Assembly: GCA_934101275.1 (NCBI GenBank)
Contig: CAKOQM010000002.1
Location: 1 to 61,021, forward strand
DNA from: an uncultured Bacilli bacterium
GTDB lineage: Bacteria; Bacillota_I; Bacilli_A; RF39; UBA660
Direction of reading: 5' to 3'
DNA: 61,021 bases
Made by a program: the position numbers and the translations under genes. The notes beneath the pieces are model-generated. The model had not been told where the DNA came from. It searched no databases and saw only the letters and a program-made list of their open reading frames with translations. Positions 16,506-55,141 of the stretch are shown piece by piece (within the stretch, counting starts at the first letter, position 1; each line of letters starts with the position of its first letter).

Positions 16506-19500
16506 TGAAAAATTACAACATAGGTCTGGATATAGGTACTACATCGGTTGGATGGGCTATTATAGATGACCAAACAAATGAGATAATGAAGAAAAAGAGA
16601 AAATCTTTATGGGGTGTACGGCTTTTCGATGAAGCCCAAACGGCTGAAGACAGAAGAAAAAAACGTGGGGTAAGACGCCGTTATGAAAGAAGAAGAGAAA
16701 GGATTCGCCTTTTACAAGAAGAATTTAAAGAAGAAATAAATAAGGTAGATAAAGATTTTTATCAAAAGTTAGCCGAAACAAAATATAATTTAGAAAAAGA
16801 TAAGATTAATAAAACTATTAAAATAAAAGTTGCGCCAACAAGCATTACCAAATTTGATGAAAATTATAAAACTATTTACCACCTAAGATATGATTTAATG
16901 AATAGTAAAGAGCAAAAAGATATTCGTCTTGTTTATTTAGCACTTCATCACATTATTAAGTACCGTGGTAATTTTAATTATGGTGGAAAAAGCTTTAATA
17001 CGGAAAGTATTGATATAACTTCTAAATTGGAAGAAGTTTTTGAAAATATTAGAAATTATTGTGATATTTTAGAAATTAATGAGGATAGTCTTGACGCGAT
17101 TAATTATCAAGAAATACTAAATTGTTTAAACGAGGAAACAAAAAATGATATTACTAAAAAATTAAAAGAATATTTTAAATCTAAAGAATTTCCCGTCAAT
17201 TTTGCCAATGAATTATCAAATGCTTTAGTAGGTAAAAAATTTAATGTTGGTAAGTTATTCAACATGGAACTTGATGAAAAATTAGAAATTAATTTTGAAA
17301 GTACGGATTACGAAGATAAGAGTGACAAAATTGAAAAGTTGTCAGATTATGCCATTGAGTTACTTGAGGAAGTCAAAGAATTATATGATGAAATTTCATT
17401 GAAGAAAATCTTTAAGAACAGTAAACAGATCTCTTTATCAGGATTAATGATTGAAAGATATGATATACATCAAAAAGATTTAGCACTTATAAAAGAAACT
17501 TTGAAACAAAATCGCGATATTTATAATAAGTTCTTTAAAACACGAAAAAATGATTCAAAAGCCTGTCTTTATGAACAGTATATTCATAACCATTTAACAG
17601 CTAATGATTTTTGTAAAGAATTAAACAACTGTTTAGAAAAAAACAATATGGTGATAGAAGATGCCGATTTTAATAGACGTCTTTTAAATGATGAAATTTT
17701 ACCCCGCATTACAAGCACGGAAAACGGGATATTTCCTTATGGTTTAAACAGACAAGAGCTTGTGAAAATTATTGAAAATCAAGGTGTATATTATCCCTTT
17801 TTATTGAACAAGATTGGCGAAGAATACAAAATTGTCAAACTATATGATTTTCGAATTCCTTATTATGTAGGTCCCCTTGTTTCGAGAAAAAAATCGGATA
17901 ATGCTTGGCTTATTCGTAGATCAGACGGTAAAATAACACCATATAATTTTGATGAAGTCATCGACAAAGAAAGAACGGCAGAAAAATTTATTCTGCGAAT
18001 GATTTCACATTGTACTTATTTGTTAGATGAATGTGCCTTACCTAATTGTTCTCTTTTGTATAATCGTTTTAAAGTTTTAAACGAACTAAAGCAAATTAGA
18101 ATAAACAATGGTTCTTATGCTGAAAAAATTCCAGTAGAACAACAAAATATAATTATAGAAAAACTATTTAAGCAAACAAGTGGCAGTATTACAGATAAGA
18201 AATTTCGGGAATTTTTACAAAATGAACTCGGTTATGATTTTTATTCAGATGAGTTAAAGATAACGGGCTATTCTGCTGATGGCAAGTTTGCCAACAATAT
18301 GCAATCTTATTATGATTTCTTTGGCGAAGATGGTATTTTTAAGGGAACAGATTATACGAAAGACGATGCCGAAGAAATTATAAGGTGGATAACTATTTTT
18401 GAAGATAAGGATATTCTAAAAAGAAAAGTTATAGATGCCTATCCCGAATTATCGAGTGCACAAGTTAAAAGTGTTTTGGCAAAAAAATATAAAGGATGGG
18501 GAAGATTATCTAAAAAGTTATTAGTTGGTTTAACAATAAAAGATAAAGAAACGAATTTACCTAAATCTATTATTGATTTAATGGCTGAAACGGATAAAAA
18601 CTTTATGCAAATTATAAATGATGACGAATATAAATTTGACCGGCTTATTGCTAAAGAAAATAAAGTGTCTGAACAAGAAGAATTATCTTATGATGTTGTT
18701 TCTAAACTAGCTACTTCACCGGCTAATAAAAGAGGTATTTATCAAGCCTTAAAAGTGGTTCAAGAACTTGTTCAATATATGGGCGATGCTCCTAAAAATA
18801 TTATGATTGAAATGGCCCGTGGTAATGAGAAGAAAGTAAGAAAAGATGACCGTAAGAAATACTTGCAAAATTTGTATGAGAAAATAAAGAAGGAGAATAA
18901 ATCTGTATATGCTTTATACTATAAAAATTTAGATTCTAAATTAAAAAAAGCAGAAAAAATTGATACAGATAAGTTGTTTTTATATTATCTACAAGAAGGC
19001 AAATGTCTGTATTGTATGAAACCTATTGAAATTGAGAAATTGGGCTTGAATGATAGTACTTACGAAATAGATCACATTTTGCCAAGGACACTTGTTAAAG
19101 ATAATTCATGGGATAATAGAGCATTAGTTTGCCGTGAATGTAATCAAAATAAGGGAGCGGATTTGGTTTTAAAGAGAGTAATCAGAGATAATTGTAATAC
19201 TTTCTGGAAACGTTTAAATGACAACAAATTGCTATCTAATAAAAAACTTTATCGATTGACTAGAAGAGAATATTCTGAAGAAGATATCAAAGGATTTATT
19301 AATAGACAGCTCGTTGAAACAAGACAAATAACAAAACATGTTGGTCATATTTTACAAAGTTACTATCCAGAAACAAATGTTGTTTATTATAAGGCAGATA
19401 TTTCTCATAGTTATAGAGAAAGATATAAACTATATAAATTTAGAGATTTAAATGATTACCATCATGCTCATGATGCTTATCTTGCTGCTGTCTTAGGTAA

Positions 19501-20548
19501 TTATCAGGAAAAATACATGCATTATAATTTGAATTATGGTCTTGTCAAAGAATTCAATGATAAATTAAAAGAAGATAAAGATTATCAAACATTATGTTCA
19601 GGAATTGTTGTAAATAGTTTAGATGAAAAATATCAAAATGATTTTGCTATAATTTCGCCTAATCTATGCAATTCAGAAACTGGAGAATTAATTTTTGACG
19701 CAAAAGCATTTAATGAACTTGTTGAAAATACCCTATATCGTAATGATATATTAGTTAGTAGAAAGTCTGAAATCAGAACAGGAGAATTTTATGATCAAAA
19801 TCCTTTAAAAAAGGGAAAAGGCAATATTTCTATAAATAAAAACATGCCAGCTAATATCTATGGTGGCTTCAGTAGCGTTAAGCCTTCTTATTTAGTTTTT
19901 GTAAAATATAATGATAAAACAAAATTGATTGGCATTCCAATATATATAGCCTGTGAAGAAAATAAAAATGCAAATATAAAAGCTATTTTTATAAAAGAGC
20001 ACTTGAAATTAAAGGATAATGACACTTTTGAAATAATAAAGGATAAAATTCCATTCGAAACATTAGTTTTACATAAAGAGCAAAAATGTTATATTAAAGG
20101 ATACAGTGTCGCCCATAAAAATTGTGAATTATCAAATGCATGTCAGTTGAAAATATCGAAGGCTTTTATGAAAAAATATAAAGAACTTTTAAGAAAGGTT
20201 TACAAGCGTAATTATGACAATATTACTTCAGAAGATATTCAGGCTGCTATTTCTTTTGTAAATTATTTGTTTAATTGCAAAAAAGATTATCCTTTATTTG
20301 AAGGAAAAATATCAGAACTTGAAATTAATCTTGATGTACAAAATATGTCTTTTGAGCAACTTGCTATTCTTATAAAAAAAGTATTATCAATATATAAATG
20401 TGTAAGTTCTACTGAAAATTTTAAAGATTTGAGCTATAACAAAGATATTGGTAGATTAGGTGATATTAATATAGCTAATCCAATTTTTATTTTTACTTCT
20501 GTAACAGGTTTATATCAAAAAGTAGTTGATTTTTCAGGTGATAAATGA
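16505..20548 (+). CDS. cas9: type II-A CRISPR-associated endonuclease Cas9
   Basis: 1347 aa. RuvC-I IGLDIGTTSVGWAII, Arg-rich bridge helix RRKKRGVRRRYERRRERI, HNH YEIDHILPRTL...DNRALVCRECNQNKG, RuvC-III DYHHAHDAYL. Confidence 0.97.
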   Translation: MKNYNIGLDIGTTSVGWAIIDDQTNEIMKKKRKSLWGVRLFDEAQTAEDRRKKRGVRRRYERRRERIRLLQEEFKEEINKVDKDFYQKLAETKYNLEKDKINKTIKIKVAPTSITKFDENYKTIYHLRYDLMNSKEQKDIRLVYLALHHIIKYRGNFNYGGKSFNTESIDITSKLEEVFENIRNYCDILEINEDSLDAINYQEILNCLNEETKNDITKKLKEYFKSKEFPVNFANELSNALVGKKFNVGKLFNMELDEKLEINFESTDYEDKSDKIEKLSDYAIELLEEVKELYDEISLKKIFKNSKQISLSGLMIERYDIHQKDLALIKETLKQNRDIYNKFFKTRKNDSKACLYEQYIHNHLTANDFCKELNNCLEKNNMVIEDADFNRRLLNDEILPRITSTENGIFPYGLNRQELVKIIENQGVYYPFLLNKIGEEYKIVKLYDFRIPYYVGPLVSRKKSDNAWLIRRSDGKITPYNFDEVIDKERTAEKFILRMISHCTYLLDECALPNCSLLYNRFKVLNELKQIRINNGSYAEKIPVEQQNIIIEKLFKQTSGSITDKKFREFLQNELGYDFYSDELKITGYSADGKFANNMQSYYDFFGEDGIFKGTDYTKDDAEEIIRWITIFEDKDILKRKVIDAYPELSSAQVKSVLAKKYKGWGRLSKKLLVGLTIKDKETNLPKSIIDLMAETDKNFMQIINDDEYKFDRLIAKENKVSEQEELSYDVVSKLATSPANKRGIYQALKVVQELVQYMGDAPKNIMIEMARGNEKKVRKDDRKKYLQNLYEKIKKENKSVYALYYKNLDSKLKKAEKIDTDKLFLYYLQEGKCLYCMKPIEIEKLGLNDSTYEIDHILPRTLVKDNSWDNRALVCRECNQNKGADLVLKRVIRDNCNTFWKRLNDNKLLSNKKLYRLTRREYSEEDIKGFINRQLVETRQITKHVGHILQSYYPETNVVYYKADISHSYRERYKLYKFRDLNDYHHAHDAYLAAVLGNYQEKYMHYNLNYGLVKEFNDKLKEDKDYQTLCSGIVVNSLDEKYQNDFAIISPNLCNSETGELIFDAKAFNELVENTLYRNDILVSRKSEIRTGEFYDQNPLKKGKGNISINKNMPANIYGGFSSVKPSYLVFVKYNDKTKLIGIPIYIACEENKNANIKAIFIKEHLKLKDNDTFEIIKDKIPFETLVLHKEQKCYIKGYSVAHKNCELSNACQLKISKAFMKKYKELLRKVYKRNYDNITSEDIQAAISFVNYLFNCKKDYPLFEGKISELEINLDVQNMSFEQLAILIKKVLSIYKCVSSTENFKDLSYNKDIGRLGDINIANPIFIFTSVTGLYQKVVDFSGDK

Positions 20549-21417
20549 GTTTTCGAACAGTAGTAATATCTAGACAATCTAAAATAAGTTATAAAAACAG
20601 ATATTTAGTAGTTAAAAGGGATAATGATGAAAAATATGTTCATTTATCGGAAATAGATACGATAGTGGTTGATTCTGTATCGGTATCTATTTCTGCCTAT
20701 CTTTTAAGAGAACTTGCTGACGCCAAAATTAATATCATTTTTTGCGATGAAAATCATAATCCTTTTGGTGAACTTAAGCCTTATTACTCAAGACATAATT
20801 CAAGCAAAATAATAAAGAAACAAATTAATTGGTCAGAGAAAAAGAAAAATGAATTATGGGCGAAAATTGTTAAAAATAAAATAACCAACCAAGCCTTGTT
20901 TTTAAAAAAACTTCATGATGACAAATACGAGTTAGTTTTAAGTTATGTTGATGAGGTAACAATAGGTGACAAAACTAATAGAGAGGGCCATGCAGCTAAA
21001 GTATACTTTAACTGTTTATTTGGTAAGAGTTTTTCTAGAGATGATAACAATGTAATAAATAGTGCTTTAAATTATGGCTATTCTGTTTTATTGTCAACTA
21101 TTAATAAAGAAGTTATTGTTAACGGGTTTTTAACTCAATTGGGAATTCATCACAAAAATGAATTTAATGAGTTTAATTTAAGCTGTGATTTAATGGAGCC
21201 GTTTCGAGTTATCATTGATAATTTTGTATATTATAACCAAGCTAGAGAATTTAATACAAACTATAAAATGGACATTATTAATATTTTCAATACAACATTT
21301 AAATACCAAAATAAGACTTATACTTTAAAAGATATATTAAGCATGTATGTTAAAAATACTTTAAATATTATGAATGGTGACGAAGAATATAGGGATTTTA
21401 TATATTATGAGGGATAG
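20545..21417 (+). CDS. cas1: CRISPR-associated endonuclease Cas1 (type II)
   Basis: 290 aa. FRTVVIS...KISYKNRYLVV, NREGHAAKVYF, NSALNYGYSVL...GIHH. Overlaps the cas9 stop. Confidence 0.95.
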   Translation: MSFRTVVISRQSKISYKNRYLVVKRDNDEKYVHLSEIDTIVVDSVSVSISAYLLRELADAKINIIFCDENHNPFGELKPYYSRHNSSKIIKKQINWSEKKKNELWAKIVKNKITNQALFLKKLHDDKYELVLSYVDEVTIGDKTNREGHAAKVYFNCLFGKSFSRDDNNVINSALNYGYSVLLSTINKEVIVNGFLTQLGIHHKNEFNEFNLSCDLMEPFRVIIDNFVYYNQAREFNTNYKMDIINIFNTTFKYQNKTYTLKDILSMYVKNTLNIMNGDEEYRDFIYYEG

Positions 21418-21727
21418 AGTTGTGCGGACAATAGTGTTTTTTGATTTACCAAATGTATATTCGAGTGATAAAAGAAATTATAATAAGTTTAGAAAATATC
21501 TTTTAAACGAAGGATTTATTATGATGCAAGAATCTGTATATTCAAAGTTAGTATTAAATAATAATCAATCTGATTTACTTATGAAACGTTTAAAAAAGAA
21601 TGCACCTAAGAAAGGCTTAATACAGGTTTTAACTATAACGGAACAGCAATATTCTAAAATCGAGTATATTATTGGTCAAGGCCAAAGTAAAATTGTAAAT
21701 AATGAAGATAGGTTGGTTATTTTATGA
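21407..21727 (+). CDS. cas2: CRISPR-associated endoribonuclease Cas2
   Basis: MRDRVVRTIVFFDLP...QESVYSK. Starting at the internal ATG 21407 gives 106 aa and an 11-nt overlap with cas1. The ORF-track start at 21374 is probably too early. Confidence 0.9.
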   Translation: MRDRVVRTIVFFDLPNVYSSDKRNYNKFRKYLLNEGFIMMQESVYSKLVLNNNQSDLLMKRLKKNAPKKGLIQVLTITEQQYSKIEYIIGQGQSKIVNNEDRLVIL

Positions 21728-22398
21728 ATTTAAATGTTAAATATTTTGATAATACGATAGTCTTTAATAAAGAATTTATTAATGTTTTAGAAATTGAAAA
21801 TAAAAAATATTTTTATCGATTTATTAAAGATTTGTATTATATTAGTTTTAGTAACATAACAGAGGATGCTCATTTTTTTGAAAATGAAAAAGAAATTAAT
21901 ATGTCAAATAAATTAAGAATATATGTTGATTTTTTTGACTTTCAATTTGATTCTAAGAAATATGTTAATGATATTTCTAAATATGTGTCAGCAAATATAA
22001 GTGATGATGATAAAAGTAGTCTTGTTGCTCTTTATAATAAAATGGTTAAACAGTATAGTAAAATTTTAAATGATGCTGAAATCCCTCTTAGGATAGAAAG
22101 TGAATTTAGTGTTGATAACTTAAATAAATTAATGAAAATATCCATTGATAATAAAGAAGACCTGCTTGATAATTTACTATTATTAATAGATTTAGAAAAA
22201 GCATTAAAATTAAACAATTTACTCATTTTTGTTAACTTGAAACAGTATTTATCTAAGGATGAATTAAGTGAATTATATAAGTATTCTATTTATAACGAAG
22301 TTATTATTTTTCTTATTGATTCTCAAAGTTACGGAGTATGCCTCAATTATGAAAAGAAGCATATTATTGATGAAAATTTGGATGAGTTTGTGTTATAA
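21724..22398 (+). CDS. csn2: CRISPR-associated protein Csn2 (type II-A marker)
   Basis: 224 aa. It is in the fourth cas position directly before the array, with the N-terminal ...NVLEIENKKYFYRFIKDLY pattern typical of Csn2. Overlaps the cas2 stop. Confidence 0.85.
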   Translation: MNLNVKYFDNTIVFNKEFINVLEIENKKYFYRFIKDLYYISFSNITEDAHFFENEKEINMSNKLRIYVDFFDFQFDSKKYVNDISKYVSANISDDDKSSLVALYNKMVKQYSKILNDAEIPLRIESEFSVDNLNKLMKISIDNKEDLLDNLLLLIDLEKALKLNNLLIFVNLKQYLSKDELSELYKYSIYNEVIIFLIDSQSYGVCLNYEKKHIIDENLDEFVL

Positions 22399-22470
22399 TT
22401 TAATCAGATGACATGAATACCATTTGGACTAATATTGTTCTATGGATATTAGGACACAGGATTAATTTGA
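22399..22470 (+). promoter_or_regulatory. CRISPR leader with candidate promoter
   Basis: 72 nt lie between the csn2 stop and the first repeat. Candidate promoter: TTGGAC (22424-22429), 17 nt, TATTAG (22447-22452). The leader ends ...ATTTGA immediately before the repeat G, resembling the type II-A leader-anchoring motif ATTTGAG. Confidence 0.5.
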
Positions 22471-24353
22471 GTTTTAGTTCTGTGTCATCCTAAATGGTAT
22501 TAAAACTCATCGGTTTACTCATAGAATCCACCTAGAGGTTTTAGTTCTGTGTCATCCTAAATGGTATTAAAACAATAATTGAAGAACAACCATATTGTCA
22601 ATTGTTTTAGTTCTGTGTCATCCTAAATGGTATTAAAACATTATTCTAAAATCACAACCTCCACAACCTGTTTTAGTTCTGTGTCATCCTAAATGGTATT
22701 AAAACCATTATTTTAGTGGTTTACATATGTGTAATGTTTTAGTTCTGTGTCATCCTAAATGGTATTAAAACAGTGATGTTTCTTTCTAAGATAGTATTTA
22801 TGTTTTAGTTCTGTGTCATCCTAAATGGTATTAAAACAAATCCTAATGCTATTGTAATCAAATATGGTTTTAGTTCTGTGTCATCCTAAATGGTATTAAA
22901 ACTGAGTTGGATAATAAAATAAATAAAGCTATGTTTTAGTTCTGTGTCATCCTAAATGGTATTAAAACTACTACAGGGCTACGATTCAAAGTATCATTGT
23001 TTTAGTTCTGTGTCATCCTAAATGGTATTAAAACTTATCCTTTCTAGCGTTTTACCCCTCGCCAGTTTTAGTTCTGTGTCATCCTAAATGGTATTAAAAC
23101 CCACTAAGTAATTGTACTTTAGAACCGTTAGTTTTAGTTCTGTGTCATCCTAAATGGTATTAAAACAAGAAAACGGCGTTATTAAGTATGGTTTTGGTTT
23201 TAGTTCTGTGTCATCCTAAATGGTATTAAAACATTATTCTAAAATCACAACCTCCACAACCTGTTTTAGTTCTGTGTCATCCTAAATGGTATTAAAACCA
23301 TTATTTTAGTGGTTTACATATGTGTAATGTTTTAGTTCTGTGTCATCCTAAATGGTATTAAAACAGTGATGTTTCTTTCTAAGATAGTATTTATGTTTTA
23401 GTTCTGTGTCATCCTAAATGGTATTAAAACAAATCCTAATGCTATTGTAATCAAATATGGTTTTAGTTCTGTGTCATCCTAAATGGTATTAAAACTGAGT
23501 TGGATAATAAAATAAATAAAGCTATGTTTTAGTTCTGTGTCATCCTAAATGGTATTAAAACTACTACAGGGCTACGATTCAAAGTATCATTGTTTTAGTT
23601 CTGTGTCATCCTAAATGGTATTAAAACTTATCCTTTCTAGCGTTTTACCCCTCGCCAGTTTTAGTTCTGTGTCATCCTAAATGGTATTAAAACCCACTAA
23701 GTAATTGTACTTTAGAACCGTTAGTTTTAGTTCTGTGTCATCCTAAATGGTATTAAAACCTGTGTTGCCTTCTTTGTCTTTTAAAACCAGTTTTAGTTCT
23801 GTGTCATCCTAAATGGTATTAAAACAATGGTATATAGTTTATCAATATTAGCATTGTTTTAGTTCTGTGTCATCCTAAATGGTATTAAAACAAAATTTGT
23901 CCGAGATGTAAAAAACCTTATGTTTTAGTTCTGTGTCATCCTAAATGGTATTAAAACGGCACTTTTATTGAAAGTTTTGAGGAATTTGTTTTAGTTCTGT
24001 GTCATCCTAAATGGTATTAAAACTATCGTTTTCGTAAAAGTATAGGTCGCCGTGTTTTAGTTCTGTGTCATCCTAAATGGTATTAAAACTAAGGGAGCAA
24101 TTATAATTAAAATGGAAAAGTTTTAGTTCTGTGTCATCCTAAATGGTATTAAAACACCAATCATTGAAGAACAATTAAGACTTTTGTTTTAGTTCTGTGT
24201 CATCCTAAATGGTATTAAAACACCGGAAATTATACAGTTTGTTATGGATTTGTTTTAGTTCTGTGTCATCCTAAATGGTATTAAAACTATCGACTTTTAA
24301 AGTTCCAGTTCCTTCTAGTTTTAGTTCTGTGTCATCTCAAATGGTATTGACTC
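22471..24353 (+). CRISPR. type II-A CRISPR array, 29 repeats and 28 spacers (20 unique)
   Basis: 36-nt repeat GTTTTAGTTCTGTGTCATCCTAAATGGTATTAAAAC with 29-31-nt spacers. The final repeat (24318-24353, GTTTTAGTTCTGTGTCATCTCAAATGGTATTGACTC) has 5 substitutions, which fits the leader-distal end. Confidence 0.98.
22640..23723 (+). repeat. intra-array tandem duplication of eight spacer-repeat units
   Basis: Spacers 3-10 (22640-23130) recur identically as spacers 12-19 (23233-23723), offset by 593 nt. Only spacer 11 (23167-23196, AAGAAAACGGCGTTATTAAGTATGGTTTTG) is unique between the two copies. Confidence 0.95.
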
Positions 24354-24474
24354 CCAGTGTTAATTGTATTTATAACTTAGCAAGTTAGAGAAATACAGTG
24401 CATTCAAAAAGCACCACAAAATAGAAATTTTTTCTACACTGCGGTACCTTTAAATGATATGAAAAAAGTAGTCA

Positions 24475-44965: not shown

Positions 44966-45070
44966 ATTCCATTCGACAATTTCATGTCTTTGACCTGAGG
45001 GTTATTTTATTTTTATTGAGTAAAAAAATAGGCCATGATATAATTAAAACATGAAGGAGGAATTTTAATT

Positions 45071-45721
45071 ATGGATAAACAAGCCGTGTTATCTAAGGTA
45101 TTTATGTGGATGTTCATAGGCCTTTTGGTTACTTTTTTAACCGGATACGTTGTTTCATTAAATCCTACTATGCTTTTAAGCATTTTTGGAGACGCTGGCT
45201 ATTTTGTTTGTGTTATTGTAGAACTTGTTCTTGTTATTTTCTTATCCACACATATTAGCAAAATGAGTCCAGCAACCGCGAAAGTAAGTTTTTTACTTTA
45301 TTCGTTTGTAACAGGTTTAACTTTTGCTAGTATCTTTGTTGTCTATGAACTTACGAGTATTATTTATGTATTTTTAATTACAGCCTTAGTTTTTGGTCTT
45401 TTTGCTTTCATTGGAGCAACAACAAAAATGGATTTAACGAAAATGGGAACGTATTTACTTATGGCACTAGTAAGTGTTCTTATTTGTCTTTTAATTAATA
45501 TGTTTATTAAAAGTTCATCATTTTCACTTATTATTTCCATTATATCTGTTTTGATATTCATTGGTTATACATCATACGATGTTCAAAAAGTATTAAGGCT
45601 TTATGACAATAATGTTTTACCAGAAGAAAATTTAGCTATTTATGGAGCACTTGAACTTTATTTAGACTTTATTAATATTTTTCTTGAATTACTAAAATTC
45701 TTTGGTAGGGACAAAGATTAA
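45071..45721 (+). CDS. Bax inhibitor-1/YccA-family membrane protein
   Basis: 216 aa with 7 hydrophobic helices and the ...FIGYTSYDVQKV... motif. Confidence 0.85.
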   Translation: MDKQAVLSKVFMWMFIGLLVTFLTGYVVSLNPTMLLSIFGDAGYFVCVIVELVLVIFLSTHISKMSPATAKVSFLLYSFVTGLTFASIFVVYELTSIIYVFLITALVFGLFAFIGATTKMDLTKMGTYLLMALVSVLICLLINMFIKSSSFSLIISIISVLIFIGYTSYDVQKVLRLYDNNVLPEENLAIYGALELYLDFINIFLELLKFFGRDKD

Positions 45722-45763
45722 AAAGATGGTTTTCATCTTTTTTTTCATAGAATAGGTGGTACA

Positions 45764-46453
45764 ATGAAAGTTATATTTTTTATGTGGCATGTCGTTTTAG
45801 CAATAGAAAGTATTTTGCTTATGAAGCAAAGATTTCGTAAAAAAGGCACTTTGTTATTAGGGATGAACACTATACTTACTGTTTATCATATCTTCTTTTT
45901 CAAAAATATTTCTAACATGATTTTGGATGTAAAAGATATTTTAAATCATACGTTTTTTACAGGTTTTCTTTTTGTTTTATATAATACTATAGTGATATTT
46001 TATGTTACTTATCTTTTATATTCTTTGAAAAACAGAAGAAGGTTAAAGAAAAGTTTATCTTTTTTAATTTATTTAATCGAAGCTATATTAATCCTTTATT
46101 TTATTTTACTTCTTTTTCAGAATCAGGCTATTTATCTTTATTTTGTAATTTTTCTATGGAGTTTGTATTTTTTTATAAAAAAATTTTTGGAAACAAACAA
46201 AAGTATTTATATCGGTATTTTCCTACTTTTCTTTGTTCTTGGAAGTTATACTTTTTTCACTTATACAGGTGCAGCTCGTTTTTCTATTGCTTTACAAGGA
46301 TATGTAAAAGAAGCATATGAAACCGGGTTAGAAGAACTAAATTTCTTGCAGGAAAAAAATATTCGCAAGTACAGTCCTATTCAAAATATTGATGAAAACA
46401 TAAATATTATTGAAGTAAGAAAATATATCTTGCTTAAAGTTGGTAGAGTTTAA
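45764..46453 (+). CDS. polytopic membrane protein, unknown function
   Basis: 229 aa with 5-6 hydrophobic helices. No family was recognised. Confidence 0.45.
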   Translation: MKVIFFMWHVVLAIESILLMKQRFRKKGTLLLGMNTILTVYHIFFFKNISNMILDVKDILNHTFFTGFLFVLYNTIVIFYVTYLLYSLKNRRRLKKSLSFLIYLIEAILILYFILLLFQNQAIYLYFVIFLWSLYFFIKKFLETNKSIYIGIFLLFFVLGSYTFFTYTGAARFSIALQGYVKEAYETGLEELNFLQEKNIRKYSPIQNIDENINIIEVRKYILLKVGRV

Positions 46454-46504
46454 TTTGCAATTTTTAACGATTTTGATATAATAATTTCTAAGAAAAACGA
46501 AAGT

Positions 46505-47410
46505 GTGGTGGGGTTTATGCAAACAATAAAAACAAGGACAATTATGACGAAATCAGACCAAGGTAATCGATGGTTTGGCATAGATTACCATATGAATTTG
46601 TATAAAGGTTGCAATATGGGGTGTATTTATTGTGACTCAAGATGTGAAGCCTATCACATAGATGACTTTGATCAAGTAAAAATAAAAGAAAATGCCCTTG
46701 AAATACTAGAGGAAGAACTTAAAAGTAAAAAAATGAAAGGTGTTGTTTCTTTTGGTTCCTTATCGGATCCTTACAATCCTTTAGAAGAAGAGTTAGAATT
46801 AACCAGAAATGCTTTAAAACTTATTTTAAAATATGGTTTTGGTGTTTCAATTGATACAAAAAGTGATCTTATTTTAAGAGATATTGATTTACTTAAAGAA
46901 ATTGAAAAGAAAAATAGTGTTATTATAAAAATTTCGATTACAACGTTTGATGATGAACTTGCCAGGAAGATAGAACCTCGAGTAATAAGTTCAACAAAAC
47001 GTTTTGAAGTTGTCCAAAAATTAAGTGAAAGTGGACTGTATACAGGTGTACTTATGACCCCGGTCTTACCTTTTTTAACGGATACCGAAGAAAATGTTTT
47101 AAAAATGATTGAGAAAACCAAAAATGCGGGGGCGAAATTCTTATATAGTCGCATGGGAATGAACTTGAAAACAAATCAAAAAAACTTTTACTATAATGCC
47201 TTAGATATTTTATATCCAGGGTTAAAAGAGGATTATATAGCGGTTTATGGTAACCGAACAATATGTAATACTCTTCAATATCGACATTTAATGGAGCTAT
47301 ATTTAAAACGTTGTAGTGAAGCCCATTTACTTACGGATATGGATATGATTATTGAAGAATATAAAAAAGAAGTTCCTCAAAATGAACAAATGAGTTTATT
47401 TGATTGGTAA
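46505..47410 (+). CDS. radical SAM protein, SPL/SplB-like (COG1533 type)
   Basis: YKGCNMGCIYCDSR (CxxxCxxC) near the N-terminus; about 300 aa. ATG 46517 is an alternative start. Confidence 0.8.
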   Translation: MVGFMQTIKTRTIMTKSDQGNRWFGIDYHMNLYKGCNMGCIYCDSRCEAYHIDDFDQVKIKENALEILEEELKSKKMKGVVSFGSLSDPYNPLEEELELTRNALKLILKYGFGVSIDTKSDLILRDIDLLKEIEKKNSVIIKISITTFDDELARKIEPRVISSTKRFEVVQKLSESGLYTGVLMTPVLPFLTDTEENVLKMIEKTKNAGAKFLYSRMGMNLKTNQKNFYYNALDILYPGLKEDYIAVYGNRTICNTLQYRHLMELYLKRCSEAHLLTDMDMIIEEYKKEVPQNEQMSLFDW

Positions 47411-47476
47411 TTATTACAAGTACCCTTTGGGTATTTTTTTTGTGTATTAACTCATAATAATCTTGAGGTGAAAAAA

Positions 47477-47659
47477 ATGAGTGAAAAAAATTTATTGTAT
47501 ATTGAAGATGCATTAGCCCATCTGGAATATTTTAAAAGACATTTGTGTATTAATGAAGAATGTTTAAGTGAGAATAAAGAAGTTTCTCTTTTAAAGAAAT
47601 TTGCAAAAAAAACAGATCGTTTATATGGCAATTTCTATGATTTATTGAAAGGAGATTAA
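47477..47659 (+). CDS. small hypothetical protein
   Basis: 60 aa from ATG 47477, with RBS GAGG 8 nt upstream. It is adjacent to the CotF-like ORF. Confidence 0.4.
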   Translation: MSEKNLLYIEDALAHLEYFKRHLCINEECLSENKEVSLLKKFAKKTDRLYGNFYDLLKGD

Positions 47660-47662
47660 TAT

Positions 47663-47923
47663 ATGGATAATAAAACGATGTTAGAAGGTATTCTATGGGA
47701 TTTAAAATGCTTAGGAGATTTATTTTTGCACGGAACGATTGAATCGGCAGATAATAAAGTTCTTCATAATACATTTTTTGATGGTTTAAATTCTGTTTTG
47801 GAAATGCAAGATAATTTATATACTTTAATGAGCGAAGAACAAATGTATAAAACGTCAACCGTTTCGAATACTAAAATAAATAATGTTCGTTCCAAATTTA
47901 ATGAAAATTTAGAAGAAGCGTAA
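47663..47923 (+). CDS. Coat F (CotF)-like small helical protein
   Basis: LEGILWDLKCLGDLFLHGTIESADNKVLHNTFFDGLNSVLEMQDNLYTLMSEEQMYK follows the Coat_F helical pattern. Confidence 0.55.
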   Translation: MDNKTMLEGILWDLKCLGDLFLHGTIESADNKVLHNTFFDGLNSVLEMQDNLYTLMSEEQMYKTSTVSNTKINNVRSKFNENLEEA

Positions 47924-47983
47924 TTTCTTCTTTTTTTCACATTTCTAACAAATTTTATCTTTAGAATAGATATTGGTGATGCT

Positions 47984-48115
47984 ATGAAAGGTAATATAAA
48001 AAGTTTTCTTGTTTGTCTTGTTTCTTTATTAGCCATTTCATGTGTATTTATCCTTATGGTTATTAGTTTAAAAGAAGATATCAAACAAAATAATATAACA
48101 ATTTCTACAACTTAA
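47984..48115 (+). CDS. possible 43-aa hydrophobic peptide (below ORF-track cutoff)
   Basis: MKGNIKSFLVCLVSLLAISCVFILMVISLKEDIKQNNITISTT*. It has one TM helix, and a terminator follows. Confidence 0.3.
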   Translation: MKGNIKSFLVCLVSLLAISCVFILMVISLKEDIKQNNITISTT

Positions 48116-48123
48116 TAAAGAAA

Positions 48124-48153
48124 GGACTATCCAAATAGAGATAATCCTTTTTT
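48124..48153. terminator. terminator between convergent genes
   Basis: GGACTATC (48124-48131) pairs with GATAATCC (48140-48147) with one mismatch, followed by T6. An A-rich tract lies upstream. Confidence 0.5.
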
Positions 48154-48703
48154 AAATTTTAAAATCATTTATTTCAATATCTGTCATATCTTTACCATCA
48201 AAAAATGGTTTTGATTTTATTTTATGTATTTTAGCAATGATATTATTAGGAAATTTACGAATGTAGGCATTAAGAATGTTCATTTTTTTATTGTAATAAG
48301 AAATGCCAGCCGTTAATTTTTCATCAATATCTTTAAAATCTTGCATAATTTCTTTCATATTTTCATTTTTGTTAAGTTCGGAGTTGTCATTATATAAATT
48401 TTCAATAATATTTTCGGCTTGTTTTAATTTTCTTTCAAAATCAAAATTACTAATCGCCTCATCTTTATCAATAATATAGTCTTTTAAATAATCTTTTTTG
48501 GTATTTAAGTTATTTTTAATCACGTCATCGGCTCTTCTTACAATATCGTATTTTTTTCTTAAATCTTCATCAATTAAACATTCTACGTGTTCTATTTTTG
48601 TTTTTCCAAATTGTAAACGATTGTATATATTTATATAAAAAATAGCGAGAAAACATAATAAAGCAAGAATTAATAAAACAATCATCCAAAGTTCCATACA
48701 CAT
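48152..48703 (-). CDS. LemA-family membrane protein
   Basis: 183 aa. N-terminal TM helix, YNRLQ..., and C-terminal YYNKKMNILNAYIRKFPNNIIAKI, the LemA signature region. Confidence 0.85.
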   Translation of the reverse strand: MCMELWMIVLLILALLCFLAIFYINIYNRLQFGKTKIEHVECLIDEDLRKKYDIVRRADDVIKNNLNTKKDYLKDYIIDKDEAISNFDFERKLKQAENIIENLYNDNSELNKNENMKEIMQDFKDIDEKLTAGISYYNKKMNILNAYIRKFPNNIIAKIHKIKSKPFFDGKDMTDIEINDFKI

Positions 48704-48890
48704 CTCCTACCTTTGACAACATTTTAACATGTCTTTTTTTAGATGTAAATTAATGAAGCTCAAAAATATAAATTATTAGTATTTTCACGTTTTAAAAAAG
48801 CTGTAATGGCGCGATGATAATTACTATTTTTAATATTGTTAAAGTGATAAAAATAGGGTAAAATCAAGATAGTAGAAAAGAGGTAAGAAA

Positions 48891-50313
48891 ATGAAACAAA
48901 CATTTTCGAATAATAGAAGAAGAACCTCAAAACCGAAAATATGTTCGGGGGGGGGGTTCTTCTTATAAATTAGGTAAATATAAAGAAGAAAAGGAAAGAA
49001 AAAAACTCTTATATTTATTCTTGAACATATTTTTGTTAATTCTAACAGTTAGTTATTTTTATAAGAGCTATGCTTTATATGAAGAAAAGAAAAACTTTGA
49101 TGCTATTAATGGGACGGTAGAAGATCCTGGTGACATCTATTTTGCCTACTATGTTGATGGGCAAATATCAAGAACGATGCCCGATCAAAACACAGGTTAT
49201 ACTTTAGATGAAGAAAAATCAAACTGTAATAATGGTGTAACCTTATCATTTGACCATAGCACGTGGGAAGCTAAAGAAATTTATACGAATTACAATACAT
49301 CGACAAATACAAGAACAAAATGTACTTTATATTTCAATAAAACTTCAAAAACAATCTCAACAGTTTTAGGTAATTTAGAAGTAAACTCTTATACACCTGA
49401 TTTTACAAAGTCAGCGTGTGATGATGATAGTTGTGAATCGCATGAAAAAGGAATCTATGAAACCACGGATTATGATGGTAATCCTACTTACTACTACAGA
49501 GGCTCTGTGGAAAACAATTATGTGAAATTTGCAGGATACTATTGGCGCATTATTCGCATTAACAGTAATGGATCCATTCGAATGATTTATGATGGAACAG
49601 TAGCCCATGATAACGGAGAGGTATCAACCGATCGTCAATATGGTACAAGTGCTTTTAATTCTAATGCAAATAATAATATGTATCTAGGTTATATGTATAC
49701 TTCTGGTGCAGCACATGGCCTAGGCACCTCCTCTGTTATAAAAGTAGCAAATGACCAATTTTATACGGATAAACTTTCAAGCTATGCTTCAAAAATAGAT
49801 ACCACAGTAGGTTTCTGTGGAGATCGATCTACCTTAATTTTACAAAATGGCGTGGGTACTGGAACCGTTGTTACTTATAATAAAGGTTATTTAAGATTGG
49901 AAGAAAGTACACCAACCTTAACGTGTGAAAATGAGTTGGATTATTATACCGTGTCATCATCTTCATTAGGTAATAAAGCTTTAACACATTCCATAGGACT
50001 GATTAGTCTGGATGAGGTCTTACTAGCCGGTCATGGCGGCGGAGTGTTTGATGGAAAATATAATCATCAAAAGACAAATTCAAAAAGTTATTTAATAACA
50101 GGTGGTCCATTTTGGACGTTGACCCCAACGGGTGGTTATAATCCATATGGTTATTACGGTTGGTCAGCTATTATGTTACTTGTAACTAATAGTGGAACAA
50201 TAACAGACTCAAGTGCAAGTTACGTATATGGTCTACGTCCTGTTATTAATATTCGTTCGGATGTTACTGTTACAGGTAGTGGTACCAAAACAGATCCTTA
50301 TATTATTAATTAA
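48891..50313 (+). CDS. membrane-anchored surface protein, paralogue of 14252-16276; out of frame at the G10 tract as sequenced (ORF-track part is 49021-50313)
   Basis: ATG 48891 reads MKQTFSNNRRRTSKPKICSGGGFFL*, with the stop at 48966. Removing one G would fuse it to ...SSYKLGKYKEEKERKKLLYLFLNIFLLILTVSYFY..., which gives a basic tail, a full TM helix and the 430-aa body with YYYRGSVENNYVKFAGYYWRIIRINSNGSIRMIYDGT and GLRPVINI. Confidence 0.7.
48947..48956 (+). repeat. G10 homopolymer inside the 5' coding region of a surface-protein gene
   Basis: cGGGGGGGGGGtt, ten consecutive G in a very AT-rich genome. It lies 56 nt downstream of an ATG with a good RBS (AAGAGG). Confidence 0.95.
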
Positions 50314-50376
50314 ATGTCTTAAAAAAATATCCAAAATTCCTCATTCTATGTTAGGATAAAATTAGTAAAAATAGAA

Positions 50377-51838
50377 ATGGGGGAAGCTGATTTAACAACA
50401 CCTTGGTATTCCTATGCAGATAAAAAATGGGCCAATGTTGTTATTTTACAAAATAGTTATGATGCTTTAACTTCCGAAGGTAAAATTGTTGGAGCGAATC
50501 CAGAAAAAAATGACAAATATTCGAATTTAAGCGCTATTGATGTTTATCAAACGGTCCTTTATAATCGAACGTTATCTGATGAAGAAATCAAAGCTAATAT
50601 GAGTGATACTATCAAAGTAACCAATAGTGAAGGGCTTTTATCTTATGTGGATTTTACAAACAAAAAAGATTATGAAGATAATGAAGTAATTCCTGAAGAT
50701 ATCATTGAGTCTTATTTTGTTTGGATACCCAAATATCGTTATAAGTTATGGGATTTAGGTAATTATGGTAGTTTAACAGGACTTGATACAACAAAAGTTC
50801 ATACGATTGATGTTTTATTTGGGGATTATAATACTTCTGATGAAAATAAAAAAGAATGTACCACCCCAATGAAAAGTGGTGCAAGAGAAAACTGCAAAGT
50901 TGGAGATTATATGACGCATCCATCATTTTTAAGTATTCCAAGTACCGGTTTTTGGGTAGGCAAGTTTGAAACAGGGGTAAAAGGTAGTACAACAACATTA
51001 ACCGATTTAGATGTATCAAAGATAGCCATTAAATCGAATACATATGGTCTTATAAGTAATTTAGCTGTAGCTCATTTAAATGCTTATAATTACAAACGTT
51101 CTTTAGATAGTCATGTCATGAAAAATACAGAGTGGGGGAGCTATCGCTTATCTTAGTCATTCATCTTATGGAAGTGCTTCTAATATTCGCATAAATAATA
51201 ATTCGAGTTCCAAAACGGGATATGCGTCTAATAATGAACCAACTTGTGGTTATACTGGTCAAAGCGATAGTTGTAATACGTATTGTAATGATGGTACATG
51301 CAACAGCCCTTATAATACAAGTACCGGTTATCTTGCAAGTACAACAGGTAATATTTATGGGGTTTATGATATGAGTGGCATGTCGACAAAAGTTATGGGA
51401 ATCATATTAGATCCAAATGGTCAACCTTATAGTGGGTCTAGCGCTTCTTATAACTTCGGCTTTAACGGATTATTTGGTTCTCCAAAGTTTGGTAGTGATG
51501 ATGGTTCTATAACAGAACTTACAACGGATATTTCATATCCTGATGAAAAATACTATGACGCTTATATCTACAATAAAGCTCGCCATGATTATAGAATGCG
51601 TATTTTAGGGGATGCGATGGGAGAAATGGGACCATACGTGTGGCAATTATGGGGTGGAAATTTTGGCACAGCCGTGACCTCTTGGTATGGTGATTTAATG
51701 GATCAAAACATTGCGACTTATCCAATTATCGATCGTGGTTATAGTTGTACTGGCGGAACTTTTTCAGGAATTTTTGCTCTGCAAAGTGGTTATGGCAGAG
51801 GATCGTTTTTTAAATTAATTTTAACTCCAACCGTTTAA
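50377..51838 (+). pseudogene. surface-protein family member, frameshifted and lacking an N-terminal anchor
   Basis: ORF 50377-51156 ends ...NTEWGSYRLS*. The adjacent frame, open from 51122, reads ...GAIAYLSHSSYGS...GNIYGVYDMSGMST and continues into ORF 51371-51838. The switch falls at a G5 run (51134-51138). No signal peptide or TM helix is seen at the N-terminus. Confidence 0.6.
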
Positions 51839-51954
51839 ATAAAGGCTTTCAAAGGCCTTTTTTTCATAATATGTCGGAATTTGACAAACGATTTTTTCGT
51901 AAAAAAAAAGGAAATCACCGATTTTTTTTGAATATATAAGTAGGAGGAAAAATT

Positions 51955-54642
51955 ATGAAAAGAATTTTTAAGTTTGTCGTAGCTTTAATGTTGTTTTCAT
52001 TAACACAAGTTAAAGCTATTGCATTTTCGTCTTCTTACATAGGCAGTTATCATTATGTTGAAGACTCGGGAAGGTGGGGTGATTTTGAAATTTTTTATCG
52101 ACAAGACAATCACAAAATCGCCTATTGTATCCAACCAGGTGTAAATAAGACGACAGAAAATTATGAAGAATATAAAGGGTTAGATGAAGAAGAATTAGCA
52201 CTAAAGGTGGGCTTAACAAAAGAAAAATTGGAAGAAATAAGTTTGTATGCTTATTATGGTTATGGTTATACGGGACATTACAGTGATGAGTGGTATATTG
52301 CCACACAAGCATTAATATGGAATGCTTTAGGTCATTCTTATAGTTTTACGTCTCAAAATAATCCAAGTAATCCATGGGCTTATAAAATTGATGTTCCAGA
52401 CATCATTAAAACAAATATGGATAGTATTTTACGTTTGGTTCAAAATCACAAAAAGATTCCGTCAAACATAGATAACAAACATTTTGAGTTAAGTTATAAA
52501 ACTCCTTATGTTATTACTGATCCAAGTTTAGTAGATTATAAACTTGATGAAGAAAATCCAGATGTTGTTTTAGACGGTGATACGTTAACAATTACGCCTC
52601 ATGAAAAAGGCCTAAAAAAAGTATCTTTAACACTTAAAAGAAAATATAATTTCTATTTAGAAGGAATTATTGTTTATCATCATGATACGGGACAAGATTT
52701 AATGCAACCAGGTAATGTAAGAAGTACATTTAGCCTCACTTATGAAAGTTATGCAGGTTCTTTAAAACTTCATAAATATGATGAAGAAACCAAATCTTGT
52801 CAAAGTATCGGGAAAAGAAATTTAGATGGCGCTTTATATGGTGTATATAAAGAAGATGGCTTATTGTTTGAAAATCTCGTTATTGAAAATTGTGAAGCGT
52901 CTTTAGATAATATTCCCATTGGTAAATATTATATACAAGAAATAAAAGCACCTTACGGTTATCTTTTAGATGATCAAAAATACTTTTTTGAAATGACAAA
53001 AGATAATATACAAACGCCTTATGAAATAACAGTTTATGATAAAGTTAAAAAAACACTACTTAAAATTAATAAAAAGTATTTAGCTTATCATAATATTTTG
53101 TTAAATGAAGAAGAGGCAACATTCAAAATTTATAGTAATACAACGCATGAAGAAATCGGAGAAATTAGCACGGATAGTTTAGGTAATGCAAGTATTGAAC
53201 TTCCTTATGATACGTATACTTTAGTACAAGTCAAAGGGAAAGAAAATTATAATTTTACACCGAATGAAACAATTACCGTGGATGATCTTACTCAAGATGA
53301 GGTAAATCTTTATTTGGTAAACCATCCTAATTATGGATCATTAAAAATAAAAAAATATGATGAAGATTCTAAAACGTGTTCTTCCTTTGGGACGTCTTCT
53401 TTAGAAGGAGCTATTTATGGACTTTACCTTCCAGATGGCACTTTAGTTGAAGAAATTACCCTTCATAATTGTGAAGCAAATGTGGATAACCTTATTTTAG
53501 GAAATTATTATCTTCAAGAAATAAAATCACCTTATGGTTATGAACTTGATTTAGAAAAGCATTATGTTACGTTAAATAAAGAGACTTTAGAAATTACGCT
53601 TTACGATAAAAGAAAAGAAGTATCTTTGAAAATCAAAAAGCAATATCATTATGATACAGATAATTATTTTAATGAAGAAAAGGCCGTTTTTAAAATTTAT
53701 GATAAGTTAACCAATACGCTTGTTAAGACGCTTACCACAGATGAAAGTGGGGAGGCTTCTGTAACACTTTGGTATGGCAAGTATATTATCAAACAAGTCA
53801 AAGGTTTAGCTAATTATGAATTTATTTCCGATGAAGAATTTGAAATTAATGATGATACCCCAGAGCTTTCTAAAACTTTTATCAATGAACCTTTTAAAAG
53901 AAGAATTCATTTAGTTAAAGTTACGAAAGGTACTCATAAAAGAATTTACTTAGATAATATTGCTTTTAAAATTTATGATGTAGAAAGGAAAAAATATATT
54001 TGTGAAAATGAGGATTGTCTTTATGAAACAAATCTTTTTGGAGAGTTTATGACAGGTTACTTATTTCCATCTACTTATGTTATTGAAGAAGTAAAAAAGA
54101 AAAATGATAATCTTCTTTATAATCCTTTGAAAATAGAAGTGAAAATTGGTGAAGAAAGTGATGAAATTACTTTGGTTTTTTTTGAAAATGAAGTGGTTAC
54201 TGGAAAAGTCATTGTGAATAAAACTAACGAAACGGGTGAGGCTTTAGAAGGGGTTTTATTTGGTCTTTATGCAAAAGAAGACATTTATGATGTGAATAAA
54301 AAAATTATTTATCGTCAAGGTGAATTCATTAGTAAAGGTTATACCAATGAGCAAGGTCAAATTATTTTTGAAAATTTGCCTCTAGGTTCTTATTTGGTTA
54401 AAGAATTAGAAACCTTAGAAGGATATTTATTATCTGAAGAAGAATATGATGTGGAACTTTTATATCAAGATGAAGACACACCCGTTATTTTAAAGGAACT
54501 TTCTCTTATCAATATACTCGTTCCTAATACGAAGAAAGAATCTCTTTTACCTTTAGTACTTTTCCTTGGTTTAAGTTTAAAAGGATGGATGGTTTTCTAT
54601 GCGAAAAAAAAGCATTCTTTTGTTACTTCTCTTAATAAGTAG
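51955..54642 (+). CDS. cell-wall-sorted adhesin: thioester (TQxA) domain plus repeated SpaA/Cna-B-type domains
   Basis: Signal peptide MKRIFKFVVALMLFSLTQVKA. Thioester-domain pair IAYCIQPG (Cys) and YIATQALIW (Gln). Duplicated module GSLK(L/I)(H/K)KYDE(E/D)(T/S)K(S/T)C...YY(I/L)QEIK(A/S)PYGY at 52756-53334 and 53335-53860. C-terminal sorting signal LVPNTK, a hydrophobic helix, then AKKKH. Confidence 0.8.
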   Translation: MKRIFKFVVALMLFSLTQVKAIAFSSSYIGSYHYVEDSGRWGDFEIFYRQDNHKIAYCIQPGVNKTTENYEEYKGLDEEELALKVGLTKEKLEEISLYAYYGYGYTGHYSDEWYIATQALIWNALGHSYSFTSQNNPSNPWAYKIDVPDIIKTNMDSILRLVQNHKKIPSNIDNKHFELSYKTPYVITDPSLVDYKLDEENPDVVLDGDTLTITPHEKGLKKVSLTLKRKYNFYLEGIIVYHHDTGQDLMQPGNVRSTFSLTYESYAGSLKLHKYDEETKSCQSIGKRNLDGALYGVYKEDGLLFENLVIENCEASLDNIPIGKYYIQEIKAPYGYLLDDQKYFFEMTKDNIQTPYEITVYDKVKKTLLKINKKYLAYHNILLNEEEATFKIYSNTTHEEIGEISTDSLGNASIELPYDTYTLVQVKGKENYNFTPNETITVDDLTQDEVNLYLVNHPNYGSLKIKKYDEDSKTCSSFGTSSLEGAIYGLYLPDGTLVEEITLHNCEANVDNLILGNYYLQEIKSPYGYELDLEKHYVTLNKETLEITLYDKRKEVSLKIKKQYHYDTDNYFNEEKAVFKIYDKLTNTLVKTLTTDESGEASVTLWYGKYIIKQVKGLANYEFISDEEFEINDDTPELSKTFINEPFKRRIHLVKVTKGTHKRIYLDNIAFKIYDVERKKYICENEDCLYETNLFGEFMTGYLFPSTYVIEEVKKKNDNLLYNPLKIEVKIGEESDEITLVFFENEVVTGKVIVNKTNETGEALEGVLFGLYAKEDIYDVNKKIIYRQGEFISKGYTNEQGQIIFENLPLGSYLVKELETLEGYLLSEEEYDVELLYQDEDTPVILKELSLINILVPNTKKESLLPLVLFLGLSLKGWMVFYAKKKHSFVTSLNK

Positions 54643-55141
54643 TTTCTTCTTTTTCTCTTTGAAAAAAGCAAGTAGAGTAACAAATATTTTATCTTCACCT
54701 TTTTCTTTTGATCAATATGCTTTTATAACTCATGAAAAACGAAAAAAAGCGTCTTTAATAGGTATTCTTGAAATATCTAAGTTAAATCTTCATCAAAACC
54801 TATATGAGAAGGATTCTAAAGAAAATAATGTTGATAAAAATGTCACTCTTTTAACGGATATGTGTCTTTTAAAGGAGGATTGTACGCTTGTCTTGGCCGC
54901 GCATTCTGGCTCAAGTGCTATCGCGTATTTTAAAAATTTGGATAAACTAACCATCGGTGATGAAGCTATGTTGCATTATCAAAATAAAACGTACCTTTTT
55001 GAACTTTTTTCTACGGAGAAAGTTTCAAAAAACGGTCAACTTATTCTAAAAAAAGAAAAAGGAAAATATTTACTCTTAACAACGTGTGATAAACAAGATG
55101 AAACTAAGCAAGACGTGTATTACTTCTATTTAAAGGATTAA
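54599..55141 (+). CDS. sortase-family transpeptidase
   Basis: 180 aa. N-terminal TM helix, His motif LVLAAHSG, Cys motif LLLTTCD. Overlaps the 3' end of the adhesin gene. Confidence 0.75.
   Translation: MRKKSILLLLLLISSFFFFSLKKASRVTNILSSPFSFDQYAFITHEKRKKASLIGILEISKLNLHQNLYEKDSKENNVDKNVTLLTDMCLLKEDCTLVLAAHSGSSAIAYFKNLDKLTIGDEAMLHYQNKTYLFELFSTEKVSKNGQLILKKEKGKYLLLTTCDKQDETKQDVYYFYLKD

Follow-up and report, generated by a model that had tools for sequence, protein, structure and literature searches.

A poly-G tract as the probable phase-variation switch of a hypervariable, membrane-anchored protein gene in an uncultured gut Bacilli bacterium

Introduction

What is a run of ten consecutive G doing at the 5' end of a gene of an AT-rich bacterium, where it separates a well-served start codon from a long open reading frame (ORF) that can only be read in another frame? 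The question is raised by a gene (48891–50313, forward strand) of contig CAKOQM010000002.1 (positions 1 to 61,021; assembly GCA_934101275.1), from an uncultured Bacilli bacterium of the GTDB lineage RF39/UBA660. This whole stretch of 61 kb, whose GC content is 28.6%, is called the window hereafter. The gene is most probably the OFF-state allele of a simple-sequence contingency gene, i.e. a gene subject to slipped-strand phase variation. Homopolymer phase variation is textbook knowledge for a handful of cultured pathogens, and almost nothing was found on it in abundant uncultured human-gut commensals.

Layout of the probable switch

The G10 run (48947–48956, forward strand, as are all features of the gene given below) is the sole run of more than five G or C in the window. 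The composition of the window predicts about 5e-4 such runs and none appeared in 100 dinucleotide-preserving shuffles (0/100); the tract is far beyond chance. As described in the original prediction, which had been made from the sequence of the window, ATG 48891 has a good ribosome-binding site (RBS): the Shine-Dalgarno (SD) sequence AAGAGG, located at 48878–48883, lies 7 nt ahead of this codon and is kept in all window-type loci. The leader frame that it opens (48891–48968, 25 codons, MKQTFSNNRRRTSKPKICSGGGFFL) enters the tract, which begins 56 nt past ATG 48891 and would constitute the switch itself, and stops, also as described, at a TAA (48966–48968).

The body frame, offset by +1 from the leader, is open from 48895 to 50313 and carries a body of 430 codons whose first ATG, GTG or TTG is TTG 49021. 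In silico, removing one G or adding two produces a continuous ORF of 473 or 474 amino acids, against 25 amino acids for G10; the fusion claimed for G9 and G12 therefore holds at both lengths, and the single product size of 473 amino acids has to be widened to 473 or 474. Every leader indel found among relatives is a multiple of 3, and both the leader frame and the frame of the tail and transmembrane (TM) segment are open in all of them. One point had been overlooked: a second ATG (48941–48943), devoid of RBS and included in an ATGTTC that abuts the tract, opens the third frame and would fuse with the body if the tract were G8 or G11. Upstream, a promoter-like site TTGTTA-17 nt-TAAAAT (48836–48864) matches the consensus at 9 of 12 positions and has the ATG 27 nt downstream; such sites are no commoner in this region than chance allows in AT-rich DNA, and this one is backed by its position alone.

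In the fused protein, the first 19 codons of the leader become an N-terminal basic tail, which is continued by the body-frame codons SSYKLGKYKEEKERKK (48958–49005), a predicted cytoplasmic basic tail homologous to the N-terminus MKLEKYK... of most family members. The sole hydrophobic segment, LLYLFLNIFLLILTVSYFY, comes next (49006–49062, residues 39–57, Kyte-Doolittle 2.07 over 19 amino acids) and would act as a signal anchor, followed by a predicted extracytoplasmic domain of about 415 amino acids (49063–50313, stop codon included) that is hypervariable between strains and contains six Cys, five of which are invariant in A1. The basic tail and complete TM helix expected for this protein are indeed present, with 13 K/R against 3 D/E in the N-terminal tail and an acidic stretch after the hydrophobic segment; taken together, these features characterise a signal anchor with N-in/C-out topology. 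TTG 49021, correctly identified as the only canonical start of the body frame as sequenced, is codon L44, inside the hydrophobic segment, and no SD is found within 20 nt upstream.

Genetic code 4 was considered and rejected: the stops used are TAA 32, TAG 9 and TGA 2, and code 11 gives a dense set of long ORFs. TGA plays no part in either frame boundary at the tract.

An inverted repeat (AAGAAGAACCTC ... GGGGTTCTTCTT, inner stem CCGAA/TTCGG) spans the tract (48917–48964). As RNA, its minimum free energy is -34.8 kcal/mol (z = -5.3). The hairpin is kept in close relatives, is weaker in locus L002 and is missing from locus L017. It displays no covariation, and codon choice may have produced it incidentally. 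A search of Rfam with 48650–49150 returned no known RNA element.

A natural pair of ON and OFF alleles

Repeat-length polymorphism giving both ON and OFF alleles in near-identical strains is seen at the closest sister locus (loci and predicted proteins of the family are cited by L and P numbers). Over the 7532 bp that can be aligned between two copies of this locus obtained in different studies, L001 (Hadza, ERZ4561940) and L082 (ERZ27287192), there are 3 substitutions and a single indel. This indel is the tract, which is G10 in L001 (OFF, called as 430 amino acids) and G9 in L082 (ON, 473 amino acids). The corresponding proteins, P0001 (430 amino acids, called from the TTG) and P0121 (473 amino acids, starting with MKQTFSNNRRRASKPKICSGGGSSYKL...), belong to one 90% cluster, and the body of the ON protein is identical to that of its OFF partner. 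Tract length thus evidently toggles the reading frame in nature.

The next gene at the sister locus encodes a 704-amino-acid Laminin_G_3 protein and has its own 5' poly-G, located within the signal/TM coding region (L001:1699, L082:2080, L083:1693, L084:2568). L001 and L082 both have G9 here (OFF), and L083, which is 99.6% identical, has G10 (ON). The copy found at L084:2568 is a chimera, in which the leader of this second gene is followed by G10 and then by post-tract sequence of the type found in the first gene. Such a chimeric junction of leader, tract and body points to recombination at or next to the tracts.

The same chromosomal locus in other samples

The positional locus of the window was fetched through the neighbouring LemA gene (181-amino-acid call) from five other samples (L002/L165 and L166 to L169). 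Samples with this locus include ERZ27287257, ERZ27287342, ERZ4561940 and ERZ4567755 (the latter two Hadza), and SRR29134025 (L169). The copy in L167 (ERZ27287257, a MEGAHIT-style contig) has the same G10 and matches the window at 99.96% identity over 4651 bp, with no gap and two mismatches. L166 and L168 carry a different allele, in which G10 is followed by one extra T; this T puts ATG 48941 in frame, and the gene caller indeed used this ATG (455 amino acids, MFGGGVSSYKL...). L002/L165 carry a third allele with an interrupted tract, GGGAGGAGGG, whose length and OFF frame are those of the window, and the L169 contig ends short of the tract. G10 is also found in five further assemblies of related alleles (L001, L003, L083, L084 and L017); altogether, L082 has G9, L002 has GGGAGGAGGG and six other relatives have G10.

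Comparison of the window (45036–50398) with L002 (1739–7098) reveals a sharp identity boundary near 48786: identity is 97.6–100% per 250-bp bin over the 3.7 kb upstream of the gene, and 70–89% from the 5' end of the gene to its stop. From these alignments, the gene appears as an allelic hot spot within a backbone that is otherwise conserved, and the boundary indicates that the variable gene alone has probably undergone allele replacement or gene conversion. Such hypervariability would fit an exposed protein that is under selection or recombining. In L004 (400–450, P0064), a clean deletion begins just past the RBS and ends midway through the TM-coding region, with loss of the ATG, leader, tract and tail. 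An exact gapped-pattern scan of the Joint Genome Institute (JGI) metagenomes for window-type flanks yielded 0 matches, and exact-product look-ups of the 430- and 426-amino-acid ORFs and of the 183-amino-acid LemA ORF of the window yielded no record.

The gene family and its poly-G tracts

More than 2000 homologues of the body are found in public metagenomes, nearly all of them unnamed, while the few with a name bear the label 'Candidatus Ventrenecus sp.'. The family is heavily expanded in GTDB species representatives, with 7 to 14 or more copies per metagenome-assembled genome (MAG; Hadza and other human-gut 'uncultured Bacilli'), and some of the MAGs that bear it entered the databases as 'Tenericutes' or 'Mycoplasma sp. 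CAG:776'. Most members have 449–454 amino acids and start with MKLEKYK... or MVKIMELKKYK.... The body codons SSYKLGKYKEE of the window align to this N-terminus, and a TAT (48964–48966) occupies the position of the ATG of the others. The ancestral start has therefore been lost in the window-type subfamily, so that expression depends on an upstream ATG and on reading across the tract. The likeness first claimed with the paralogue found at 14252 in the window is partial: both have the same basic-tail-plus-TM N-terminus, but only the C-terminal ~290 amino acids are shared, at 33% identity. Profile searches of the product against Pfam, NCBIfam and PDB sequences gave no match.

Tracts were surveyed in 916 kb, made up of the window and 164 family loci. 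This survey identified 68 distinct G runs of at least 8 and 0 C runs of at least 8, whereas composition predicts about 0.6 G runs and 0.03 C runs; without exception, it is the coding strand of the adjoining gene that bears the G's. At 5' ends across the family, tract lengths range from 8 to 12 and both ON and OFF states are present. The tracts occur in several contexts.

Promoter-spacer tracts (n = 31) lie between TTGACA-like and TATAAT hexamers, most of them in the arrangement cTTGACAgtc-G10-12-tatctgtTATAAT and a few with other flanks. Their spacers are 18–22 nt long, 20 being modal; the common class has 20–22 nt, 4/31 have 18–19 nt and none has 17. The gene of the window carries no tract in its promoter. 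The common class, whose arrangement is that of most family members, displays an extended -10 (TGTTATAAT), for example at L005:2949, and a tract of G10, G11 or G12; its members are L005, L006, L008, L010, L014, L015, L017, L020–L023, L027, L031, L038, L088 and L098. One promoter-spacer copy is interrupted (GGCGGGGGG).

Tracts in 5' coding sequence (n = 23), which range from G8 to G11 with 14/23 at G10, follow leaders of at least four unrelated types: MKQTFSNN...KICS-Gn, MKQKYV-Gn-LLNKHNSLKLQKFKE, MKNSGKSRFSVNH-Gn and the leader of the Laminin_G_3 gene. Five of the 23 are ON and 18 OFF, which is compatible with a random third being in frame (P = 0.17). Among the 18 OFF alleles, the correction needed for the ON state is -1 in 13 and +1 in 5.

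Finally, 12 tracts from distant MAGs lie in short ORFs. In this module (L056, L059, L062, L069, L071, L075, L132–L146), an RBS-served ORF with G9–G11 lies about 0.5–1.3 kb upstream of a homologous domain, and a terminator-like hairpin follows the short ORF in those inspected (L056, L062, L069 and L071); it is possibly a different, attenuator-like switch module.

Probable phase variation and its alternatives

In the slipped-strand explanation, which is the one that we favour, transcription would probably start from the TTGTTA/TAAAAT promoter-like site and ribosomes would load at AAGAGG/ATG 48891. With G10, translation would terminate after 25 codons and the body would be left without any RBS-served start. 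Slipped-strand mispairing in replication would add or remove G's and hence change the frame, the ON state being one deletion or two insertions away from the sequenced allele. At G9 or G12, the product would be a type-II membrane protein of 473 or 474 amino acids, with a basic cytoplasmic tail including 3–4 Gly, one TM helix and a variable, Cys-containing ectodomain of about 415 amino acids, whereas at G8 or G11 only the RBS-less ATG 48941 would be in frame, giving a possible weak state. Switching would be frequent and reversible, the ectodomain would be exposed at the cell surface, and host immunity or phage might be the selective agent. As family bodies sit behind a poly-G located either in a 5' coding leader or in a promoter spacer, a clone could vary stochastically which members it displays. 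The proposal of the original prediction that the tract is non-neutral and the gene an OFF-state phase variant thus gains support from the G10/G9 pair of the sister locus and from the recurrence of tracts across the family.

Several observations weigh against this explanation. Comparing tract length between strains, as had been suggested, uncovered G9 and G10 at the sister locus, but no in-frame G9 at the positional locus of the window in the five other samples, of which L169 does not reach the tract. The interrupted allele of L002 sits in the OFF frame and cannot slip. Furthermore, G10 is strongly modal (14/23 coding and 20/31 promoter tracts) and most of the sampled alleles are OFF; the G10 mode could reflect mutational bias. 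Lastly, the surface location is predicted from topology and hypervariability alone, and two AlphaFold2 models, one of the whole body (47 homologues) and one of the C-terminal domain (two subfamilies), have predicted local distance difference test (pLDDT) scores of 41 and 41.5.

A broader explanation, which we put forward tentatively and consider less likely than its negation, is that of a lineage-wide 'phasome' in Ventrenecus-like gut Bacilli, made of dozens of poly-G switches with shuffled modules and combined with strand-specific slippage. The tracts, always G on the coding strand, would control the hypervariable membrane-anchored family. The modules, namely a poly-G in the promoter spacer, leader-peptide poly-G modules of at least three unrelated kinds and the short-ORF-plus-terminator-like module, would be interchangeable; recombination at the tract or close to it would move them between homologous bodies, as in the L084 chimera. 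The strand polarity and the modal G10 would then reflect transcription-linked or RNA-level slippage acting besides replication slippage.

Among the explanations that dispense with present-day switching, the least improbable, although unlikely, is that the gene is dead or locked off: the allele, whose tract formerly switched, would now be a decaying pseudogene like its neighbour. The lack of any ON form at the positional locus, the non-slippery OFF tract of L002, the deletion of the whole leader-to-TM region in L004 and the clear decay of the adjacent gene of the window all go in this direction. However, the 430-codon body is unbroken in the window and in every OFF relative, the tract of the window is an uninterrupted G10 flanked by leader and tail frames that are open and display only 3n indels, and the OFF body P0001 is identical to the body of its ON sister P0121.

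Somewhat less likely still is recoding, according to which G10 is the working state and the body is reached by RNA-polymerase slippage or by +1 frameshifting with a G-rich, SD-like stimulator, the stop lying three codons on as in prfB. This would account for the modal G10, for the same -1 correction in 13/18 OFF alleles, for the perfect GGAGG that the L002 tract GGGAGGAGGG retains with an unchanged offset, and for the stable hairpin across the site. Yet the corrections are a mixture of -1 and +1, and therefore there is no constant offset such as a programmed frameshift requires: G9 is in frame in L082, L043, L100 and L104, and a +1 correction is needed in L017, L045, L106, L110 and L001:1699. 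Many of the -1 cases are paralogues of common ancestry, UUA-UAA offers no evident slippery P-site codon, and the hairpin is neither present in L017 nor supported by covariation. A prfB-like programmed +1 frameshift was accordingly rejected, its offset not being conserved across orthologues. Low-level slippage may exist as a leak on top of phase variation.

An assembly or sequencing error, the true tract being G9 and the gene intact, had been mentioned from the start as the alternative to phase variation. Homopolymers are error-prone, and another frameshift in a G run is found 2.2 kb downstream (51134–51138, G5 against G4 in the homologue), a possible hint of such errors in this assembly. Nevertheless, the independent short-read assembly L167 of the same allele also has G10, with no gap over 4651 bp, G10 recurs in the five assemblies of related alleles, and the interrupted tract of L002 is equal in length and offset; these independent occurrences make a one-off assembly error very unlikely. 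As for the downstream gene, it is also truncated and internally deleted, so that its frameshift fits decay. Finally, an independent regulatory leader peptide encoded by the 25-codon ORF, together with a start of the body at TTG 49021 as in the 430-amino-acid form annotated by gene callers (P0001, P0004), is hardly credible against the lack of an SD within reach of this TTG, the trimming of the sole TM segment to 13 hydrophobic residues with loss of the basic tail, the 21 body-frame codons ahead of the TTG, which are homologous to the N-termini of other members and open in all relatives, and the presence of the fused 473-amino-acid form on record.

Other features of the window

The gene is followed by a decayed neighbour (50377–51838, forward strand), identified by comparison as kin of the Laminin_G_3 genes that come after the sister locus (L082 2142–4256 and 4915–6324). 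It is devoid of leader, TM and poly-G part, lacks an internal segment of about 100 amino acids, and is split by a +1 frameshift at the G5 located at 51134–51138 (TGGGGGAGC, versus TGGGGAGC in L001, which has G4 and reads ...NTEWGAIAYL...). This frameshift results from either gene decay or a homopolymer error. Further downstream, a pair of A9 and T8 runs around a 12-nt core (51901–51929), which may be a hairpin, lies just upstream of the RBS of a SpaA/thioester-domain adhesin gene (51955–54642), itself followed by a sortase gene (54599–55141). The presence of these sortase and pilin genes points to a low-GC Gram-positive bacterium, presumably with a cell wall.

The window also encodes Cas9 (16505–20548) and Cas1 (20545–21417), which are followed by an ORF (21724–22398) and by a type II array of clustered regularly interspaced short palindromic repeats (CRISPR; 22470–24382). 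The array contains 29 copies of a 36-nt repeat (GTTTTAGTTCTGTGTCATCCTAAATGGTATTAAAAC) and 30-nt spacers. Nine of its repeat-spacer units (22603–23195, the ninth being partial) recur at 23196–23788, with the first eight spacers identical and the ninth different.

Significance and comparison with known systems

If the tracts switch as those of Campylobacter and Neisseria do, each cell line would show a stochastic subset of a large, fast-evolving surface repertoire, with a bearing on the evasion of immunity (immunoglobulin A, IgA) and phages in the gut and on strain tracking in metagenomes. Gene callers mis-annotate the OFF alleles as N-terminally truncated proteins of 426 to 430 amino acids or as split genes, and public metagenomes are a ready source of natural ON/OFF pairs. 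Taken singly, the tract is ordinary biology; what deserves a short study is the system that spans the family in an uncultured gut commensal. In the literature, no paper on phase variation in this lineage or on this protein family was found.

The lic1-type loci of Haemophilus influenzae have several start codons in different frames and switch through a tetranucleotide repeat. Likewise, the gene of the window has two upstream ATGs in different frames, one with an RBS (48891) and one without (48941), and two of the three tract-length classes fuse the ORF. Such an arrangement could yield strong, weak and off states, the use of ATG 48941 being suggested by the L166 gene call alone. Unlike lic1, the repeat is here a homopolymer.

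Mycoplasmas possess variable surface families controlled by poly-A, located in the promoter for Vlp of M. hyorhinis and within the gene for Vaa of M. hominis. Mycoplasma families of variable surface proteins with homopolymer switches have been reviewed (PMC4534519). The family described here resembles them in that it belongs to low-GC relatives among the Bacilli and consists of multigene, membrane-anchored variable proteins that each have their own homopolymer switch. It differs from them by the use of poly-G instead of poly-A, by a TM anchor instead of a lipoprotein signal, by the lack of any sequence relation and by a host that is presumably walled.

In Neisseria, poly-G/C tracts are found in PilC's signal peptide and in the promoters of opc and porA, and switch at 1e-2 to 1e-4 (PMC2193922). 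As in pilC, the tract of the window lies in the coding region of an N-terminal leader, where extra Gly is harmless, and as in opc and porA, the tract of other family members lies between the -35 and -10 hexamers. The proteins are, however, unrelated and belong to another phylum, and the spacers of the common promoter type are 20–22 nt long here.

The poly-G tracts of Campylobacter jejuni have a modal length of G9, G8 mainly gaining and G11 mainly losing units, and this mode is ascribed to the mutational pattern (PMC3401435). Fluorescent fragment-length (GeneScan-type) analysis has been applied to the 28 loci of this species (PMC4965091). The likeness with C. jejuni (PMC3401435, PMC4965091) extends to an AT-rich, gut-associated genome in which G runs of 8–11 are otherwise absent, to many, mostly intragenic tracts per genome with a mode of about 9–10 and a spread of one or two units, and to ON/OFF control by frameshift. 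Unlike those of C. jejuni, the tracts described here belong to Gram-positive, sortase-bearing, uncultured Bacilli, serve one membrane-anchored family and not mainly glycan-modifying enzymes, are all G on the coding strand, are in many cases located in promoter spacers, and are known from sequence alone. The switch itself would thus be an ordinary slipped-strand ON/OFF switch, and what is new is the lineage, the gene family and the fact that homologous bodies carry several kinds of switch module side by side.

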